DNA from: Eledone cirrhosa
Taxonomy: Eukaryota
Assembly (NCBI GenBank): GCA_964016885.1
Contig: OZ024743.1
Coordinates: 249,736,001-249,800,000 of the forward strand
Reading direction: 5' to 3'
Length of the DNA: 64,000 bases
Shown: positions 1-62,384 of the stretch, piece by piece
How positions within the stretch are numbered: position 1 is the stretch's first letter
Layout of the letters: each line of letters starts with the position of its first letter
Program-made: the position numbers and the translations under genes
The notes under the pieces: generated by a model
The model's input: the letters and a program-made list of their open reading frames with translations, nothing else
Databases searched by the model: none
Told to the model about the DNA's origin: nothing

Positions 1-244
1 ATTCTACTATATTACAGGTGTGTCAACAATATATTCTACTATATTACAGGTGTGTCAACAATATATTCTACTATATTACAGGTGTGTCAACAATATATTC
101 TACTATATTACAGGTGTGTCAACAATATATTCTACTATATTACAGGTGTGTCAACAATATATTCTACTATATTACAGGTGTGTCAACAATGTATTCTACT
201 ATATTACAAGTTTGTCAACAATATATTCTACTATATTACAGGTG
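1..244 (+). repeat. 32-bp tandem minisatellite (>=7.5 copies, may continue upstream of the window) built from the SLC22 splice acceptor
   Basis: Unit ATTCTACTATATTACAGGTGTGTCAACAATAT. CAG ends at 17, 49, 81, 113, 145, 177, (209 mutated to CAA) and 241; the last is the acceptor of the coding exon. Confidence 0.95.
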
Positions 245-456
245 CATCACCAGTATGTTGTACTATGGAGTGACACTAAATTCTGTTGATATGTCAGGCA
301 ATCAATATATAAACTTCCTGTTGATGTCAGTTGTAGAAATTCCAGCCAATATTCTTGGATGCATATTATTCTATTGGTTTGGTCATCGTAAACCATTGTG
401 TGCCCTCATGATATTTGCAGGAATCAACTGCATAGTCTCAAATTTTGTGACAAAAG
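242..456 (+). CDS. SLC22 organic cation/anion transporter-like (MFS), internal exon
   Basis: tattacAG|G-TGC ATC ACC...; encodes CITSMLYYGVTLNSVDMSGNQYINFLLMSVVEIPA..FGHRK (SLC22 YYG, VEIP and GRR-like motifs); donor AAG|gtaa at 457, phase 1. Confidence 0.9.
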
Positions 457-1265
457 GTAAAAAATGTATGATTCTTAGTACTATTAGACTTTCATTTTTA
501 AGTATTATCATCATCCTCTTCATCATCATCATTTTATGCCTGTTTTTCGTGCTGGCATAGGTTAAACAGGGGGTCATGGTCTGAGACAAGACAGCTTGGA
601 GACCCACATCTTGTTTATATGTTCCCTATTTTGCTATGGTTTCTACGGTTGGATGCTCTTCAGAACATCAACTACTTTACAGATTGTACAGGGTACATTT
701 TATCATGGCTCCAACACTACAATCAAATTTTCACAAATCAATGTTTGTCTTTCATTTAATTGTTTCATGAAATTTAAATCTAAAATTAAAGCAACTCTCT
801 TAGAGCAGATCCTGAAAGAGTCTCAATGTCGATAATGGATTGAAATCAATACTGTGGGCAGGGGATCACTTGTTGGAAGTATAGGGGTCAGTGGTATCAT
901 GTAGGCGGAAGAACAACCGACATGGTCACGCTCTTCTCTTTTGGACCATGGCATCAAACAGACATGATTGCTGTGTAAGCTTGAGTATATGTTGATAGGT
1001 TCTGGCCACAGATTAGGTGGGTATATTTCCCGTCTGGACAAGATCAACAATAGGAGAGGATCCACAAGGATGGTGAGCTATCCATTTTCTCTTACAACAA
1101 ATACATTGAGGAATTATGTTCAGGATAATTTGAACTCTACTGTAAGCAGAAATAACAGTAAAAAAAACAAGCATTTAGAATGATTTGGTCTTATCCTAGT
1201 GTTAGTGTTTGATAGATGGACAAAAAATGGTGTATAATCATTATAATATACAATTTTTTCTTCAG

Positions 1266-4638: not shown

Positions 4639-6700
4639 ATGGCTAGCATTCAAGAATCGCTAGCGAACGTTGAGGAAGGGAAAAGAAAAGAATTTCACGT
4701 TGCTAAGAACTTTGCCTATATCAATGTTGTTGACAACAAAGTTTTGTTTAATGAAAGTGAGGTAGACAACACAAACAAAATTGAACCACACAGTGTACAA
4801 CAGACACCAAAAACAACAGAAAAACAATTGACACAACTGCAAACGGAAAAACCGACAACCACAACAACAACAACAACATCAAAAGAATAACTTTTACAGA
4901 AACAGTTGCAAATAATAATATGGTTTTCAACATTACCTCAAACTCCACATGTATTGGCGTCACTATAGAAGCCAATATGGACAACAAAAATAAAAACAAG
5001 ATTGAACCACACAGTGTACAACAGACACCAAAAACAACAGAAAAAACAACAGAAAATAAAACGATTGACACAACTACAAACGGAAAAACCGACAACCACA
5101 ACAACAACAATAACAACAATAACAACAACACAAAAAAAAATATTTTTGCGCAAACAGTCATCAACAAAGAAGATTACAAGGATCTCGATATCTCCAATGC
5201 GAGACAGATTCTCTCTGAAGCAAAGGAGTTTATCATTTTCGGTGAAAACGGTGGGTTTCAAATAAACTCACTCCCAGAAATTCGTCTTGAAATACTTCGA
5301 AGGACAGTTACCTTCAAAACTGTTTCAAAGGAAACAAAATGACCAGCATTCCTCAGTCAAAGGGAAATTGAGGCAACCTTGAAAGAGATATTGCCAAACA
5401 TTGACTTTATGCAGAGGGCCAAACAGTACGGGAGTATTTCGGTGCTCCTCAAAAGCGAGGCCGTCGCACAAAGATACTCAGTGACACCAATACTGTCAAA
5501 AATATACACCTTTTTCCCTATATACATGGGAAAAAGGACTCAGAAAATCAGAATCGCAAACATACTACCAAATATTAATATTTGGTGGATATTAGCAGGT
5601 TTTATAGAGGAGGGACATGACACCATCCTCTCCATCAGGAAATCAACCAGACACACGTGGTCTGGTACAAATTTGGAGATTCTGGTGCAAACGAGGCTGG
5701 AGAGAATCTCCAAAATACCCGAAAAAGTGCTGGTGGACAACAACAGCAACATAAGCATTTCGGTTGAAGGAAGAAAACCCACACTGCTTTCGATGTAACA
5801 GCACAGCACATCTAAAGGCCTCCTGTCCTTTACAGGCACATTCTAACCCCCCCCCCCCCCCCCCAAAAAAAAATACTGTTAACAACACCAACACCAAAAC
5901 AACCACCACCACCACCACCACAACCACAACACACAAAACAAGCAAACGCACCAAAACGAACAGCCACTCAACCAACTACAGCAGAAAAAACACAAACAAC
6001 ACCCCAAAGAACACAGTCCCACTCCATCCCACTCCATCCAACACGGCCACAAACACACCATCACCACACAACAAACACCTACCGCATCATCGTCAGACGA
6101 GGCTACTTCTTCATCTCCAAGTGAAGATGAAGGACAGCCTCGAAAATCCAAAAAGTAAAAAAAAAAGACACCACAAAGCCACAAAAACAACAATCGTCCA
6201 ACACCAACACACAACCACCGACACAAATAACAACACAAACAACACCAGAATCAAACCCCGCCCTACCAGCAAAACAAACACCAACACCACACCAAACACA
6301 AGCACCCACCATAAAAAGAAAACTCCCAGACGAACAACAAACTAAAACAACACAACAAAAACACAAACAATACACATACATCAACAAAAAACAACAAGAG
6401 TTTGATGGAGGTCATCTCCAAAAATCCCAAGGTGGAGACGGAGGGCAAAACTTTCGTTAAAGCAGAATCGTCTACACACCTCAAACTAATAAGGGTTTCG
6501 ATGGAAACATAGCGAACTAAAAACAAAATTTTTGCAGGACGTGGGCAACTCCTGTCAAAAACCCATAAACCGCGTCTTGTTAAAATGTTTCCCCACCACA
6601 CCCAACACCCCCATCAGCACTCAAATGGTTAATTTAACAACCCGATTTCCAGGAAGCGAAAAGGTAAGTGCACCTTTTCGTCCTCTTTCGCCAACTCTTC
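4639..6700 (+). pseudogene. Tx1 ORF1 (gag-like), frameshifted
   Basis: MASIQESL... start; VEGRKP followed after a frameshift by CFRCNSTAHLKASC (CX2CX4HX4C); T/N/K low-complexity stretches; internal duplication of ~4775-4875 at ~4995-5110. Confidence 0.75.
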
Positions 6701-6709
6701 TCCACCAAC

Positions 6710-9700
6710 ATGGCTAATTTACGAGTTGGAAGCGTGAATGTGCATGGCTTAGGGATGCCCTGGAAATAGGGCCAACTTTTAAACGACCTTAGGTCATACG
6801 GTATGGATGTGATAGCCATCACCGAGTCCAGGATCCACAACAGGCATCAATTAAGCCCATCTTCAATGACTTTGAGATCTACGCATCTCTCCTGTCAGCC
6901 AGGAGGTGGAGGGGAAGTGGCTGTCATGTTTCGAAAAAACCTGGAACTCGAAATACAGCAAGTACACTGGAACCTGGAGGGTAGACTGGTAGTCCTAGAC
7001 GTGAACAGTCTTGGAGGTGGAGCCTTCAGACTGGTGGCCGTTTATGCCCCGACTGGGCAATCGCGGCCAGACTTCTTTAAGTGTCTAGAGTCTTTTCTGA
7101 GAATGTCTTCCTCCTTGCTTTTAGTGGGGGACTAGAATGGCATCCTAGACGTACGATGAGACTATGTAGGATCATGTCCTAGTAGAGCGGGGTGCAACAG
7201 CCTCAAAAATTTAATCGGCTAATTCCAACTGGCCGATAGGTATCAACTAGATTTCCCGACTGCACCACAGTGGACGTGGACAAACCGCAGCGGGACATCT
7301 AGATCGTATTTAGACAGGTTCTTTATTACAGAGAGAGACAAGAAGATGTTAAGCTGTCTACAAATGCACATGGTTGCCTATTCAGACCACAAACTAGTCA
7401 TCTGCATAGTCAACCATGATAGAGTACATAGACAAGGACCCGGATACTGGAAGCTGAACCTGTCACTACCGACACGTAAAGCCTACAGTGAATGGATAAG
7501 TAGATTAGTTAAGCAACAGTTGACAGGAGCCAATTGTCAACAACAGATGGTGGTACTCCCTCAAGAAAGCAATTAGAGTAAAGTCAATAGACTTTAGCAG
7601 AGAGTTAGCCGTAGAGAGAAACAAAACAGAAACGGAACTAGTAGCAAGGTAGAGGAGGCGCTTAGGAGTGGCAACGTAGCTAGAGTGCTAGCAATGAGAA
7701 CGGCACTGGACCAGTTCTTCGACGTGAAACACGAAGGTTGCATGGTCAGAAGTAAATCATGTGCTCTAGGATATGAGGGAGCAAAAGCTGTTAGCTGGGC
7801 CCGAGTGGCAGAGGCGAAAAGTGGCAACAAGTCCACGATTCGGTCTTTGAAAAACTCCAAGCGGATGTGCGTGGCCTTTCAGCGGCACTTTGCGCAACTG
7901 TTCGGGCAGAGTGGCGGTGCGTTGAACGAGGCAATGGACTTCGGTTCATACCTTGACGGCCTGCCACGTCTCTCGAGCATGGCCGCCGAGTTCTGCGAAA
8001 GACCGATCACAGCCACTGAGATACGGAACACTCTGAGCTGCTGCGGGAAATGCAAATCACCCGGTCTAGATGGTCTACCCTATGAGTTTTACATAGGCAT
8101 GCCGGACTTGTTCTCTGTCGTCCCCGAGGCCGTCTACTGCAACTGGCAGCAGAATGGGAGAATTCCCAGTTCTGCAGGCAGGGGCATAGTAACGCTGATC
8201 AGAAAAGATTAGAACAAGGGGGACGAACTAAGTAACTTTAGGCCCATAACTCTGCTCAACACAGAGTTAAAGATTTTGGCCAAGGTGTTGGCAACAAGGT
8301 TGGTGCTTGTCGTCGAGAACCTGGTAGGGAAAGCGCAAACGTGTGCAATCCCGACCAGGTTCATACACGACAACCTCCACCTCATGCGATACATCATAGA
8401 GAGGGTAGGGTGTAAACCCGGCTTTGGTGGGGCTCTGATCAATTTAGATCAATCTAAGGCGTTCGATAGGGTCGACCATCAATACTTGGAAGCGGTTCTC
8501 AAGGCGGCCAGTTTCAGACCCGTCTTCAGAGGCTGGATCACCGCAATGCACACCAACATCTGCTTGATGGTCAAGGTGAACGGCTACCTATCGGAGCCGT
8601 TTGCAATCACGCGTTCCATCCGACAGGGATGCCCTCTCTCCTCCATTCTGTACGTACTCTAGAGCCACTGCTGCAGGGCATTTCGTTGGTACTGGGAGTG
8701 TGGAAAGCGGTGTCGGCTTATGCTGACGACGTGACGGTAATGGTGTTGGAAGCCTCCGAAACTGAACCCGGACAAGTCTGTTGGTTTGCAACTCGGAACA
8801 TGGAGAAGCAAACCGATGCCATCCGACAGCGTTGTCGGATGCTGGACGGACAGACCGGTGAAATTGCTTGGGGTCTGGTTCGGTCCGGACCTCCAGGTGG
8901 AGAAAACTGGAATGAGGTCACGGCCAAGGTATTTGCGCTCACCCAGAAGTGGGCAGAGTGCAAACTATCCTTGAAAGGTCGAGCGGAGGTGGCAAACACT
9001 CTCATAGCGTCCGTCATCTACTACCGCTTGACCATCGTGCCTTGTCCCCGTGAACACCTCACCAAGATGGAACGCATGCTCTTCCAGTTCCTTTGGAAGA
9101 TGCAGGCTCCACTGGTGAGGAGATCCGTCTGCTGTCAGCACCTTTCCAATGGAGGGCTGGGAATGCCGTGGCTGATGATGCGTAAGCATGTGCTGAGGCT
9201 ACGGCATCTACAGGTATTCCTCACCGACCCCCCCACTGGTGTGGGCACCGTTTGTGAGACAAGCCTTCCCACAACTTGTCTCGCTGACGGAGCTGCAGTC
9301 TTGAGTCAAGCGAAGACCGAAGAAGATGGGCGCCTGGCACATTGAATACGCTCAGGTGCTCACAGTCCTCTGTCAAGTGGGCACGGCAATCAGTGGAGAC
9401 TCCACTTTGACATTCTATAGAGGGTTAGTACGTCACAAGGGCGACGATGTACTCGGAGAGACTCCAGGTGTCGAAGACGACGAACTCACCAGTCTGTTTG
9501 GTAGGACTTTCCATCCGAGACCTATGGACAACTTCCATAGGTCCCTGGCCTGGCAGTGCTACCGAGGAGCTCTACCAGTTCGTACAAGATCTACAGGCAT
9601 GGACGCCCCGGCAGGGGTCCTTCCAAGAGGACGTGTCCAAAATGCACGCAGGACATTGAAATCGTCCTGCACGCAATTGTACACTGCCCGGGCGTAACTG

Positions 9701-10050
9701 ACCTGTGGTACTACGCGGAACAACTGTTGTCGCATATGGGGCAAATCCAGTTGACTGCCGAGTCCATAGTAAGGATCAAACCGCCAACTTCTTTCAAAAA
9801 CGAAAGAGAGACGGTTTTCCTCTGTACAGTGGCTATGGTGAAAGAGGTTATAGGGTGGACGAGATTAAGAGGACTGAGGGCAGATGCCTTTCTCTCCAGA
9901 CAACAACTCATTCCCTTCTTTAGATACCACTTTAGAAGGAGAATCAGGATGGAGAAAGAGGCACTGCACCCCAGTAAATTTACTGAAAGGTGGGTGAATG
10001 TGGCAAAAATGGCCCGAGTGATTGGGCCTTCTCTGTATATAAACCTGTAG
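6710..10050 (+). pseudogene. Tx1 ORF2 (AP endonuclease, reverse transcriptase, zinc finger) with multiple stops and frameshifts
   Basis: MANLRVGSVNVHGL, VYAP, LVGD, YSDHK, GPGYWKLN, KSPGLDGLPYEFY, FRPITLLN, DQSKAFDRVDH, RQGCPLS, AYADDV, GGLGMP, CPKC..E..LHAIVHC. Confidence 0.93.
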
Positions 10051-12857: not shown

Positions 12858-12905
12858 CTGATGATTTCCTTCGAATGAAACAGTACTAGTCCTGTAGAAG
12901 CCATT
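12858..12905 (+). ncRNA. Hammerhead ribozyme-like motif (stem I displaced)
   Basis: CTGATGA-tttc cttc gaat-GAAA-cag tactagtc ctg-TA. Same family as 61214-61270, but the upstream stem I strand is offset by about 6 nt. Confidence 0.6.
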
Positions 12906-12918
12906 TCTCTATTAAATA

Positions 12919-14677
<1,759 letters not shown>

Positions 14678-14761
14678 TATATATATATATATATAAATGT
14701 GTGTGTGTATATATATGTATATATATATATATATATGTGTGTGTGCGTGTGTATATATATG

Positions 14762-14806
<45 letters not shown>

Positions 14807-14822
14807 TTGTATATATATATAT

Positions 14823-14895
<73 letters not shown>

Positions 14896-14962
14896 TATAT
14901 ACACACACACATTAGAGACGGTGGATTACCTGGGCTGGGTTTCAATCTCAGTCAACGTCTAT

Positions 14963-15000
<38 letters not shown>

Positions 15001-16995
15001 TTATTAAAATAACAGATTCAAGTTTAAGCAAAGAATCGCTGCTTTCACCCTTAACGGGATCTTCTGAAACTAACAAAGTCAATCTGTGAACGCAGAAGTG
15101 GATATTTCAAAAAACGTTGCAACCGGAGGAAGACAGGAAGACGATACTTTGGTTCGTGGAAACGTTCCCTGGCAAAGAACGGGAAAAAAACGAATATAAT
15201 ACGTCATTAATAGGAGCGGGGAAAAACAATTACGCGCAAAGACAGAACCACGTTTATGGCATAAAAGAGGTCGTTGACTAATGTTCTTTTAGGTGGTTCA
15301 TAGAGACGTTCTCTGGCAATGAACGGAAAAAACGAAGATAATACGTCATATGTGGAGCGTTGAGAACAATTGCACGCAAAGACAAAACCACGTAAATGGT
15401 ATAGCAGAAGACGTAGACTAAAATTCTAACTAGGAGAGCGAATGATTCTCGGCTTCAAAGTTAAGAATAAAGTAAATAAAATACAGAGGTAATTAAAATT
15501 AAATAAATACATACACGCATCCATATACGTACATACACAAGCATACATAGGTATACAAATACACGCACATATAAATATGTGCGTGTGTGTGTGCGTGTAT
15601 ACAAATAATTAAATAAACGTATATAAATAAATAAATACGTATATAACAAGCACACACACATACCTACATGTAAATACACAAATGTTCGGAGATGTACGTC
15701 AACCAAAACACAAAGTACACATAAACACACACCCTACATACGTACGAACCCGCATACTCACACAGACGCAAAACTCACGTATACACATAACCAAAAGCAT
15801 ATGTACCAGAATTTATATAATATACGCCATAACATATACAATCAGATATACGTAAGAGAAAGTATACGTACCGTCACAAAACATACAGGTAATATATACT
15901 TACCTATGCAAATAAGTAATGGTATAAACATAACATATACTTAGCTACCACATCAAGACGTAAAATATCCGCGTATAGATCGTACTATCCGTTAGGGTAT
16001 AATGTGGGGCTGTAATACAGGAAAGTTTTGTGCAATTTATGTTTACAAGCCGAAATTGCCTCAGATTTTTTGTTTAAGATGTGGTCTGTGGCGTAGAGTA
16101 TTTCCAGGGCCTCAGCGGTGCAGTCGTCACATAGTCTTTTATTTCCGTTATACGATCTAGCCCTAGCTAGGATCTCCCAGTGTAACTTATATTGGGTGTG
16201 GTTGTCTTTTTGGACTCCAGATATAAGCTGAAAGTGACGTCATATTCCTTCTTAGAGGGTAACGAAAATAATGGGTATGCATGTAAAGACGCTGCTTGAA
16301 TCTATTGGCGGTTAACCCTATGTAGGCCCTACAGGACGTGGGTGTTTCAACCTTACATTTGTAGACAATGTTACTAGAGAGGCATTTCCCGGATATGGGG
16401 CAATCAACCCGATTCCTACAATTACAGTTAGTACTAACTACAGGGTTGCACGTGTTCCTACGGCTAGGTAGTTTAGCTAAATTTGAAACTGTGATGTTAT
16501 GTGCAAGGTTAGGAGTCGTAGAGTAAGAAATTTTAATAGTATTTCTATTAAAAATGTTACTATATTTATGTTTAGGGGGAAAATGCATTGTAATAAGGGA
16601 TAGAAAGATCTTAGCTAATGGTGTGGCCACCTCCATATTATATGGTGGGTTATACCATATAATGCGTCGGGATCTATTTCTTCTAGGTCTATTCTCGTAC
16701 TCAGTGTATGCTACCTTATCGACAAATTCACTCCGAGCAAGAGCTTCATTGTAATATGTATCGTCTTCCTGTCTTCCTCCGGTTGCAACGTTTTTTGAAA
16801 TATTCACTTCTGCGTTCACAGATTGACTTTGTTAGTTTCAGAAGATCCCGTTAGGGGTGAAAGCAGCGATTCTTTGTTTAAACTTTAATCTGTTATTTTA
16901 ATAAATAAATATATATATATATATCTTATATATTTGATATATATTTATCCTTATCGAGCCCTCTTTGGATTTTAGTCTTCAAATTTATTATTATT

Positions 16996-35327: not shown

Positions 35328-35836
35328 TCAGACTATGACATCTTTTAAAATATATTTTTGAATTTGTGATGTTCCAGTGTCTGGGTGGTGATGTAACACA
35401 TAACTATCTGAGGCCAAGCTGTCACTGTCTGAGGCAGTTAACATGGCTGATGTTGATGATATGTCATTGTACGGAGGATAATCTTTACAGTTTTCAGTCA
35501 ATGTGTAACGCAAACCTGTCAGATTTGTGGCCCGGGGGACAGTAGCCGGGCCACTGCCTCCTCCCCCTCCTCCTCCTCCGTAAGGGGAGTCGAGAGAATT
35601 GGAGATACAGTATTTAAAAGTGGGCCGTTTTGTTGTCGGTGGTGGAGTCTTGACGCTGAGTTTATCAGATTCAGTTGAAGATGATGTATGGGATAAGATG
35701 TCACCATTGAGTGTTTTGGGGGGACAATGGTTCGGGCGAAACGTACGCAGGTTTGGAACCCGTCTCACTTCCCCAGGATTATCCCCCTTTTCTTCATCAA
35801 ATGAACCTTCTGCTGGCACAGGGGATCCTTTAATAT
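35328..35836 (-). CDS. Protocadherin-like gene, terminal cytoplasmic exon
   Basis: Strong poly-T CCAG acceptor; phase 1 matches the donor at 62242; open 169-codon Ser/Pro/Gly-rich frame (D)IKGSPVPAEGSFDEEK...SDSDSLASDSY...KYILKDVIV*. The hydrophobic C-terminus resembles a PDZ ligand. Confidence 0.75.
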
Positions 35837-35945
35837 CTGGAAAAAAAAAAAAAAAAAGTTTTAAACCTATGTTAATTGGCGTTTTTTTTGTTTTTTTAAA
35901 AATTACTCTTCAAGATCTAACTGCAAAGATAGCTACTACTACTAT

Positions 35946-40095: not shown

Positions 40096-40842
40096 TTAGA
40101 GATGCCTACTGGCAAGGCGGGTCTTCTCTGTTACTGAGTACCGCCAAAGGTCTCGGTCCAGTGACATTGTCTTGGAGAGGTGTAAGTGTGTGAGGTCGGA
40201 GTTTATCAGCTCGTCCCAGGTTTTTCTAGGTCTGCCTATTCCGTGGCTACCGTCTATCTTTATTGCCCTGCACTTTGTTATACAGCTATCGACTTTCATG
40301 CGCATCACGTGTCCATACCAACGTAGCCTTCTCTCGAGTAAACAACATCTGATCCCTCTTATTTCTAATTTTTTCCTTAGTTCGTTTATGCTTTGCCGTT
40401 CACGTATATTACTGTTACACATCCAGCGGAGCATGCAAGCTTCGTTCCTCTCTAGTCTGCATATATCCTCTGCACACAATGCCCAGGTCTCACTGCCATG
40501 CAACATTGCTGTTCGTATGCAGGCATCGTACAACCTGCCTTTCATTTTTAGGGAGAACCCTTTAGCAGCTAATAGTGGTATAAGCTCTCTGAACTTTTTC
40601 CAACCAGTTCTGACTCTAGCTACTGTACTTTCAGAGCACCCTCCCCCACTGCTGATTTTATCGCCCAGGTAACGGAAGCTGTCCACTATTTCTATAGAAC
40701 CCTCTGCGCAATTGAAAGAGCTAGTATTTTGTGGGCACTTGCTGCTACTTATTGCACCAGAACACCGGCCACATGTAAAATCTATGTTCTTAGTTAGCTT
40801 ATCTGTGATCCCACTACATCTTTTATGCACCCATACTTTGCA
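40096..40842 (-). mobile_element. RTE-clade LINE, 3' part with an uninterrupted frame and a PHD-like finger
   Basis: [72 protein letters not shown]. The N-terminal YIYI of the listed ORF is microsatellite. Confidence 0.92.
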
Positions 40843-60832: not shown

Positions 60833-61151
60833 TCTATCTGTATATAGGTATGCATTTGAAGTTTAAATATTTTGAGAAATGAAAGTGCAAAAAAGATAAT
60901 ATAAAAAGGATTTTCGAAATATTAAACATAAAAATTAAAGAAAAAATATCTATATTCTATAAAGGTTTCCTTGAAATACTTCCTGATCTATGGATCGGAT
61001 ATCTGACTGACATGTTTTTTTAATGTTTATATTCTACCTGCAATGATTGGTCAGTTAGTTTACTGAGCGGGTATTTATTATTAGAAAGTGTTTACTCTGC
61101 TCTACTAATATCTGGTTCATGACAGATTCTTGGATATATATATATATATAG

Positions 61152-61204
61152 ATGAGATTCTACAGGACTAGAACTGTTTCATTCTTTAGAAATCATCAGG
61201 AATC
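61152..61204 (-). ncRNA. Hammerhead ribozyme, left member of a divergent pair
   Basis: On -: GATTC-CTGATGA-tttc taaa gaat-GAAA-CAG ttctagtc CTG-TA-GAATC; intact core and stem III, GUA site. Confidence 0.8.
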
Positions 61205-61213
61205 ATGAGAATC

Positions 61214-61270
61214 ATGAGATTCCTGATGATTTCTAAAGAATGAAACAATTCTAGTCCTGTAGAATCTCAT
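61214..61270 (+). ncRNA. Hammerhead ribozyme, right member of a divergent pair
   Basis: ATGAGATTC-CTGATGA-tttc taaa gaat-GAAA-CAA ttctagtc CTG-TA-GAATCTCAT; perfect 9-bp stem I, one mismatch in stem III. Confidence 0.8.
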
Positions 61271-61349
61271 GTATATTAAAACTTTTATACTCTGCTATGT
61301 ATTGAGTACCTTACTTACTGTGGTTACCTCCGATTCAACCCGGAATAAC

Positions 61350-61403
<54 letters not shown>

Positions 61404-61414
61404 GCATATACATA

Positions 61415-61451
<37 letters not shown>

Positions 61452-61486
61452 GCATATACATATATATATGTATGTATATATATATA

Positions 61487-61550
<64 letters not shown>

Positions 61551-61585
61551 TATACATATATACGTATATATATATATGCATCCAT

Positions 61586-61642
<57 letters not shown>

Positions 61643-61991
61643 TGCATATACATATATATATATGCATGCATATTCATGTATACATATATATATATATGTG
61701 CATGCATATACATATATATGTATATATATACATATATATTTATATATATATATATATATGTGCGTGTGCATATATATATGTATGAGTATGTTGTGTATGT
61801 GTGTATGTATATATGTATATATAAGTGTGTGCATGTGTGTGTGTGTGAAGTGACACATAGCTTGACTGAGTTTCACAATGTAACACTGCAATAATTTAAC
61901 TCAGCAAGTTGGATAGATTCAACAGCCAAATGAATAAACAAATAAACAAATAGAAATAAAAAACAGCACCTTGAGTCTTTTTTTTGTTTAT

Positions 61992-62020: not shown

Positions 62021-62242
62021 ATTTAACTAATAAAAACAACGCCGTACTTTAACATAGCATATTTCTTTTTTAATCAAATCTTTTAGCTTTCTCTTTTCAT
62101 ATTTTTGATATTTGTGAAAGAACGTGGCCCACAGCAGTGGCCCTTGAAAAAAATAATAAATATATTGTTCAGTATATTATGGTGTCGTTGTCGACGGTAA
62201 CAAAGACTAACGTTTCCCTTGGGTGGTAGTAGTAACCCTTAC

Positions 62243-62384
62243 CTGTCTTATTATTTTGATAGGGGACTCTGTTCAGTTGAACATCCTCTTCACTGCCTCC
62301 ACGGCCACTATCAGATGCTCCTGTCTCACCAGAATTTTCACTGTATGTATCTTCCATCTTAGCTAAATGTAATAAAGTTTTGTA
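62243..62384 (-). CDS. Protocadherin-like gene, cytoplasmic exon with CM1-like motif
   Basis: Pyrimidine-rich ttttcAG acceptor (phase 0); YKTLLHLAKMEDTYSENSGETGASDSGRGGSEEDVQLNRVPYQNNKT; G|gtaagg donor. DSGRGGSEED matches the protocadherin CM1-type motif. Cadherin repeats lie outside the window, so the family call rests on this motif. Confidence 0.8.

Follow-up and report, generated by a model that had tools for sequence, protein, structure and literature searches.

The palindrome found in an intron of an octopod protocadherin gene of Eledone cirrhosa is very probably a young pLTR insertion of an endonuclease-bearing Penelope-like element (PLE), likely of the Hydra clade, which is set in a TA repeat and accompanied by an inverted copy that lacks the tail. 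In the protocadherin pre-mRNA its two arms should, by prediction, pair as a 53-bp hairpin that keeps both hammerheads unfolded. The copy number of the element, its parent ORF, the boundaries of its arms and the variants that both arms have in common are direct observations. The element is most likely an ordinary by-product of insertion and not a protocadherin switch. The window analysed here comprises 64,000 nucleotides (contig OZ024743.1, positions 249,736,001 to 249,800,000 of assembly GCA_964016885.1), and its relevant features are collected in Table 1.

Table 1. Features of the palindromic element and its host intron, in window coordinates; parent positions (with sign) are relative to C3 of the hammerhead.
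Feature	Positions	Strand	Remarks
Left (TA)n target tract	61134..61150	.	Sequence
Inverted, tail-less pLTR copy, parent -5 to about +53; hammerhead C3 61199, N17 61161	61146..61204	-	
Locus-specific junction, short pieces copying stem I sequence	61205..61216	.	Junctions vary among copies
Direct pLTR copy, parent -6 to +127; hammerhead C3 61223, N17 61261; plus tail	61217..61350	+	
Right (TA)n-rich target tract	61351..61759	.	
Cytoplasmic exon of the host protocadherin; GT donor at 62242	62243..62362	-	38/39 aa vs Argonauta hians protocadherin
Host protocadherin last coding exon, 3' end of host intron	35328..35837	-	Protein match

The arms (61152-61204 and 61218-61270) are complementary at 52/53 positions, with a single mismatch at 61174/61248 and a spacer of 13 nt; an 80-bp extension (61271-61350) is present on one side only, and the flanks, examined for a target-site duplication, are TA repeats on both sides. 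The type I hammerhead motif CUGAUGA...GAAA...GUA can be read on each strand, and both strands carry the complete type I core (C3-A9, G12-A14, A15.1-U16.1 and an NUH triplet, here GUA) in a three-helix arrangement with an open-ended stem I. On the minus strand, the one transcribed with the host gene, stems I, II and III have 5, 3 and 4 bp, while the plus-strand copy has a stem I of 10 bp and a stem III of 3 bp that is broken by an A-C mismatch at 61248, a position occupied by G in most reads and contigs of the family. The 10.1-11.1 pair is U-U rather than the usual G-C in the window and in 12/12 aligned parents, and a search of the window against Rfam gave no family at gathering score. The preliminary description is thus confirmed in its near-perfect inverted repeat with one hammerhead per strand, its asymmetric tail of about 80 bp, its (TA)n on both sides and its stem III mismatch in the plus copy, and the cleavage site that it predicted between 61161 and 61160 would coincide with N17 at 61161. 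Its view of the minus copy as intact holds for the core and the 4-bp stem III, and is qualified by the U-U pair, the 3-bp stem II and the lack of an Rfam match. We suspect that the short junction between the arms arose by re-priming.

Because the two host exons, the second of which (ending at 35331) matches the Argonauta protocadherin at 73%, map to adjacent residues of that protein, the element can be placed 892-1091 nt below the donor at 62242, in an intron of about 26 kb. This is the last coding intron of a minus-strand octopod protocadherin, in agreement with the earlier placement about 1 kb inside such an intron. Pfam gave no family for either host exon or for the PLE fragment of the window. 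That the insertion lies in an intron of a neural gene is a matter of chance, and the locus itself is of little weight. Read on the host strand, the tail contains donor-like GTAAGT and GTAAC at 61305-61330 (-), which might act as a cryptic 5' splice site, the real donor being 0.9 kb further up.

The identity of the element follows from its full-length parents. These carry the same hammerhead and tail ahead of an ORF of about 713 aa with RT and GIY-YIG regions, so that the window element is a 5'-short PLE insertion, and a young one, since its direct arm is identical to the full-length copy L129 at 131/134 nt and one of the 3 differences is a common variant at +14. A query from the N-terminal part of the ORF gave 150 scored matches, 20 of them with an open frame of 758-759 aa. 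Among 30 loci selected by their ORF, 13 have hammerhead and tail directly upstream, with the ATG at +175; another 5 show the tail without the hammerhead. In long copies, too, the hammerhead/tail end is connected with an ORF that bears RT and GIY-YIG motifs, and in L092, L096, L099, L101 and L108 this end lies downstream, joined to the 3' part of the ORF. Its presence at both ends of the ORF marks the sequence as a pLTR.

The architecture is that of an EN+ PLE: the YRDD and VYK...YIG motifs lie in one frame, as a single ORF of RT and C-terminal GIY-YIG; the pLTR with its hammerhead occurs at both ORF ends; and an inverted 5'-truncated copy with a one-sided tail is found in 56/87 terminal copies. 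On the parent ORF, Pfam returned GIY-YIG below the cut-off (E 0.022) and no RT family, so PLE membership rests on motifs and architecture; no informative name appeared among 120 listed of 683 homologues. Within the PLEs, the motifs point to the Hydra clade as the likely home of the parent. RWR and DKT are present in 6/6 full-length frames examined, corresponding to the RWK/DKT motifs of the clade; the ORF of L101 has a CxCx5C linker at residue 450 and CxxC and CxH, around the conserved E and N, at 550 and 578; and insertion is into (TA)n (84/87). As regards a CCHH finger, which the endonuclease of the clade does not have, the GIY-YIG core contains no CxxC but does contain C-x8-C; related ORFs in L100, L104 and L106 have one Cys.

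Two other classes of mobile element were considered and rejected. A MITE or fold-back DNA transposon does not fit the one-sided tail, the variable junctions and the RT parent. A non-LTR retrozyme would consist of head-to-tail tandem monomers, described in parts of PMC7229834 as about 170-400 nt long, whereas the window element is a single head-to-head pair. A head-to-tail satellite does occur elsewhere in the genome, at C28:30,578,000-30,871,000 (L246-L253). It has 78-bp units of the same hammerhead (parent about -13 to +65), in which 42 exact junction matches all fall on one strand; the units are 92% alike, and most keep the core. Judged by its sequence, the satellite looks like an array of a very short non-LTR retrozyme that descends from the PLE of the window, and dimeric cleavage could take place in it.

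Searching the genome with the 200-bp element gave 2,274 candidates, of which 40/40 scored align over the full length at 94-100% (the self-hit included). Exact matches numbered 8,070 for a 30-mer of the tail and 6,127 for a 47-mer of the hammerhead, and head-to-head hammerhead core junctions within 30 nt occur 4,948 times, under a pattern that also picks up a sister family. Reversed control patterns gave 0 matches against these thousands; the palindrome pattern is therefore not due to chance. The 30 best-scoring copies are all palindromes with differing junctions, except that one junction string is common to 5/30. Such recurring strings are what would be expected if a non-autonomous master, palindromic in itself and similar to a MITE or SINE, were copied whole, but we consider this very improbable, as most junctions and outer ends differ, arm length ranges from under 30 bp to 3.3 kb, the tail is always missing on one side and the parent is an RT element. 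Among four sequencing runs, the left flank was covered only in X1, possibly the assembly's own sample; in X6 and X17, which bear the same species label, the element was covered and the flank was not, and X4, from another organism, gave one 45-nt partial match; this coverage has no bearing on whether other genomes carry the insertion.

Since the best-scoring copies had been chosen by their likeness to the query, an unselected set was taken instead. It consists of the 90 tail matches that come first among the 8,070, and all of these lie on contig C1. Three continue into the ORF and 87 are terminal; TA follows directly after 84/87 of the latter, and 27 of the 87 have two complete cores, as in the window. 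An adjacent inverted arm is present in 56/87, a count to be read with the proviso that in long copies, such as L092 with its 3.3-kb arms, this arm may lie outside the fetched stretch. Without exception but one (55/56), inverted arms end at +53 to +66 from C3, without the tail, the exact end being blurred by TA microhomology. Toward the 5' side, 30/56 inverted arms stop at -7 to -4; tailed arms (n=87) stop at -8 to +3 in 36 cases, while 23 end downstream of this range and 28 upstream of it. The longer arm is the inverted one in 27 copies and the tailed one in 8 (p 0.002). In 25/25 comparable pairs the arms agree at the loop II site +14 (13 A, 11 T, 1 C), which would have p about 5e-9 if the arms were independent; over all sites, the arms have 20 variants in common and 21 that are private, with one short arm contributing 6 of the latter. 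Two of these features are new here: arms that often end at the border of stem I, some 30 nt downstream of a conserved TATA box, and subfamily variants common to both arms in every comparable pair.

The TATA box in question lies at -36 in the family of the window and at -36 or -37 in 6/6 parent-like copies of the sister family, although the intervening sequence differs. Pol II promoters direct initiation about 30 nt below the TATA box, so the start would fall at -6, where the arms stop. Stem I has 6 bp in both families, with 2 compensatory pairs between them (12 sequences); as these sequences represent essentially two lineages, the covariation evidence is modest. The sister family provides a further sign of an RNA 5' end in an extra G at -7, as a copied cap would give, which was seen in 17/24 short copies against C in 5/6 parents (about 7 ambiguous). 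The same sign is not supported in the family of the window, where the G occurs in 1 of the 7 rows outside the parent-like class and 3 of the 7 are parent variants. A 3' splice site was rejected as the cause of the -6 hotspot because AG at -6/-5 is absent in sister-family parents with the same hotspot; the hotspot could also be due to the stem I repeat itself. Three copies (L037, L169 and L171) start at about +39, the cleavage site, and were not taken as evidence of cleavage because microhomology in stem I explains them equally well.

Arms with a common 5' stop and common variants suggest double priming on one RNA. In such a scheme transcription of the parent would start on the first base of stem I, at about -6, with the conserved TATA box 30 nt upstream. 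The element's enzyme would cut both strands of the (TA)n tract; one cut end would prime cDNA synthesis at the tail end (+127) of the parent RNA, and the other would prime within the same molecule, where it is rich in TA near +53 to +60. Both cDNAs would run toward the RNA 5' end and be joined there by microhomology, the downstream cDNA having to displace the upstream one, which would fit its more frequent early stops. The twin-priming idea comes from work on L1. For PLEs, in vitro experiments with Anolis Poseidon, as far as they are set out in the relevant passages of PMC11167929, found both target strands cut and extended and the tail bounded by two internal RT starts. We propose, tentatively and as an account that may well prove wrong, that the roughly 5,000 hairpins with twin hammerheads record in vivo the way in which PLEs make inverted ends, through an RNA that starts at the first base of stem I, two cut TA strands priming on it at two internal sites, and cDNAs joined at its 5' end; the by-product, self-contained dsRNA hairpins spread through the genome, would silence the element's ribozyme within host introns and might supply substrates for octopus hyper-editing.

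The same PLE could also have reached this form by another route, through self-priming or snap-back on one template, or through later gene conversion combined with central deletions, and this we regard as a serious contender that stops somewhat short of being probable. It likewise predicts identical variants in both arms (arm identity could stem from later gene conversion), it accommodates the short copied-back pieces in the junctions, and self-priming on an antisense template has been proposed for PLE palindromes, in a passage of Arkhipova 2013 (PMC3846280). Snap-back from a tailed cDNA, on the other hand, cannot give an inverted arm that reaches further 5' than the tailed one, as it does in 27 copies against 8 the other way round, and in L035, L059, L160 and L207 the tailed arm ends near +50 to +71, where the other arm begins.

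The consequences for the host RNA were assessed by predicted folding. Within the complete minus-strand sequence, the price of imposing the hammerhead helices is 70.8 kcal/mol, as compared with about 3.9 kcal/mol for the isolated arm (P 0.002), with the energies being nearest-neighbour predictions without Mg or tertiary terms. Reading all 18 A of the antisense arm as G still leaves a cost of 54.8 kcal/mol, and even in the extreme case where each edited pair is a full mismatch it amounts to 14.5 kcal/mol; six core adenosines of the ribozyme arm would be editing targets as well. In simulated growing transcripts every nucleotide of the ribozyme is paired in the MFE structure from 11 nt past C3 on. 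Of the two structures that had been supposed to compete in the pre-mRNA, the hairpin is thus the predicted winner, and the proposal that early transcription of the antisense arm favours sequestration is borne out by these models. With the hammerhead fold costing about 71 kcal/mol, and still 55 after editing of every antisense A, the models predict sequestration and make an editing switch very improbable.

It had been suggested that A-to-I editing or folding kinetics might free the host-strand hammerhead and so lead to a regulated cut of the protocadherin intron. The core on the host strand is intact and its stem III is the better of the two copies, and in excerpts of PMC5625713 the octopus CNS shows the strongest hyper-editing signal among the species compared and palindromic repeats of the frog are heavily edited. 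Against this stand the energies given above, the loss of core adenosines to the same editing and a ribozyme arm that is modelled as paired while it emerges. There is also no sign of selection specific to the locus, given only 3/134 nt of difference from the parent and about 5,000 equivalents. Metazoan PLE hammerheads, moreover, cleave poorly alone, showing no cleavage as monomers and little as dimers in the assays described in part of PMC4209133, or need the protein of the element, as did that of the Anolis PLE (PMC11167929, in the passages concerned). We consequently give the switch next to no likelihood, and neither it nor the related notion of a special self-silencing device is supported, as the same geometry occurs on both strands and at 4,948 junctions; it follows from the way in which the retroelement inserts. 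In view of what PMC5625713 describes for octopus dsRNA, it is plausible that the hairpin is edited by ADAR, but according to the folding models this would not free a working ribozyme. The ribozyme would serve the element's own life cycle and is likely inert at this locus, where the hairpin would be at most a passive ADAR substrate.

Other elements in the window and among the fetched copies are related to this family. A single sister-family hammerhead (12858-12916, +), 83% identical to the parent and cut on its 5' side, has a TA tract after it. The stretch 12990-16900 is taken up by pieces of a related PLE nested in one another, with about 48% aa identity to the parent ORF at 15988-16759 and 13991-14302 (-) and inverted terminal copies bearing a hammerhead-like motif near 16840 and 14410, in which core position 4 is A. 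In L095:238-3400 (-) and L103:1-2380 (+), a different PLE ORF, Neptune-like with a CX4CxxC linker and two Cys in the GIY-YIG core, stands upstream of a 79%-alike hammerhead/tail end; this represents either an exchange of 3' ends between PLE clades or a nested insertion into the TA tract. At the start of the window (1-560, +), a 32-bp tandem repeat runs into an apparent exon, which from its translation we take to encode a membrane transporter. The translations of 1678-2406, 4785-10050 and 40096-40800 presumably represent fragments of one mariner-like transposase and of two non-LTR RTs.

Set beside known systems, as characterized in the pertinent sections of the papers cited, the element combines textbook PLE features, namely inverted 5'-truncated copies, one-sided tails and pLTR hammerheads (PMC8557442, PMC3846280, PMC2377424), with (TA)n targets that have also been described for PLEs (PMC8557442, PMC3846280). 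With the inverted-pLTR insertions of EN+ PLEs such as D. virilis Penelope and Adineta Pen2/Pen2a (PMC3846280, PMC8557442) it shares the head-to-head 5'-truncated copy, the one-sided tail, the hammerhead and TATA-like box in the pLTR and the AT-rich or microsatellite target; unlike in those, both arms here are cut down to the hammerhead alone with one sharp stop, the tail is about 65-75 nt instead of 30-40, and copies number in the thousands. The diagnostic set given for the Hydra clade in section 11 of Craig 2021 (PMC8557442), comprising RW[K/R], DKT, the CxCx5C linker, CxxC and CxH around the conserved E and N, and (TA)n insertion, is shared, as is the canonical-type HHR. Differences from the described families lie in RWR in place of RWK, in two Cys 8 residues apart within the GIY-YIG core, and in a length of about 5 kb, owing to a long microsatellite-rich 3' region, where described Hydra families are mostly under 3 kb.

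Metazoan PLEs carry type I hammerheads (Cervera and de la Pena 2014, PMC4209133) of the same topology, with an intact core and palindromic loop III bases, and these likewise occur mostly as solo truncated copies with some opposite-strand pairs, which in Schistosoma lie 100-700 bp apart; the present ones differ in their 4-bp stem III with an 8-nt loop, their 3-bp stem II and the U-U in place of G10.1-C11.1. Anolis Poseidon PAc (Frangieh 2024, PMC11167929) shares a hammerhead near the ORF start, internal insertion ends and an AT-rich target, but belongs to another clade, and its ORF starts inside the hammerhead and not, as here, at +175; inverted arms are not addressed in the portions of that account considered here. 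A repeat paper on O. vulgaris mentions neither 'ribozyme' nor 'Hydra', and among 16 listed papers on octopus, cephalopods, Penelope or hammerheads, octopus and hammerhead came together only in Craig 2021, whose files S1/S2 may already contain the PLE family of the window.

In conclusion, a switch in a protocadherin intron would, if true, have been a major finding, and energetics and copy number argue strongly against it. The family to which the palindrome belongs is a young, high-copy and apparently intact Hydra-type PLE that offers thousands of natural insertion products with sharp ends. The formation of tandem and inverted structures by PLEs is listed as an open question in Craig 2021 (PMC8557442, in the passage concerned). 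The present set of copies makes the double-priming and self-priming models testable, both by counting and by in vitro assay.
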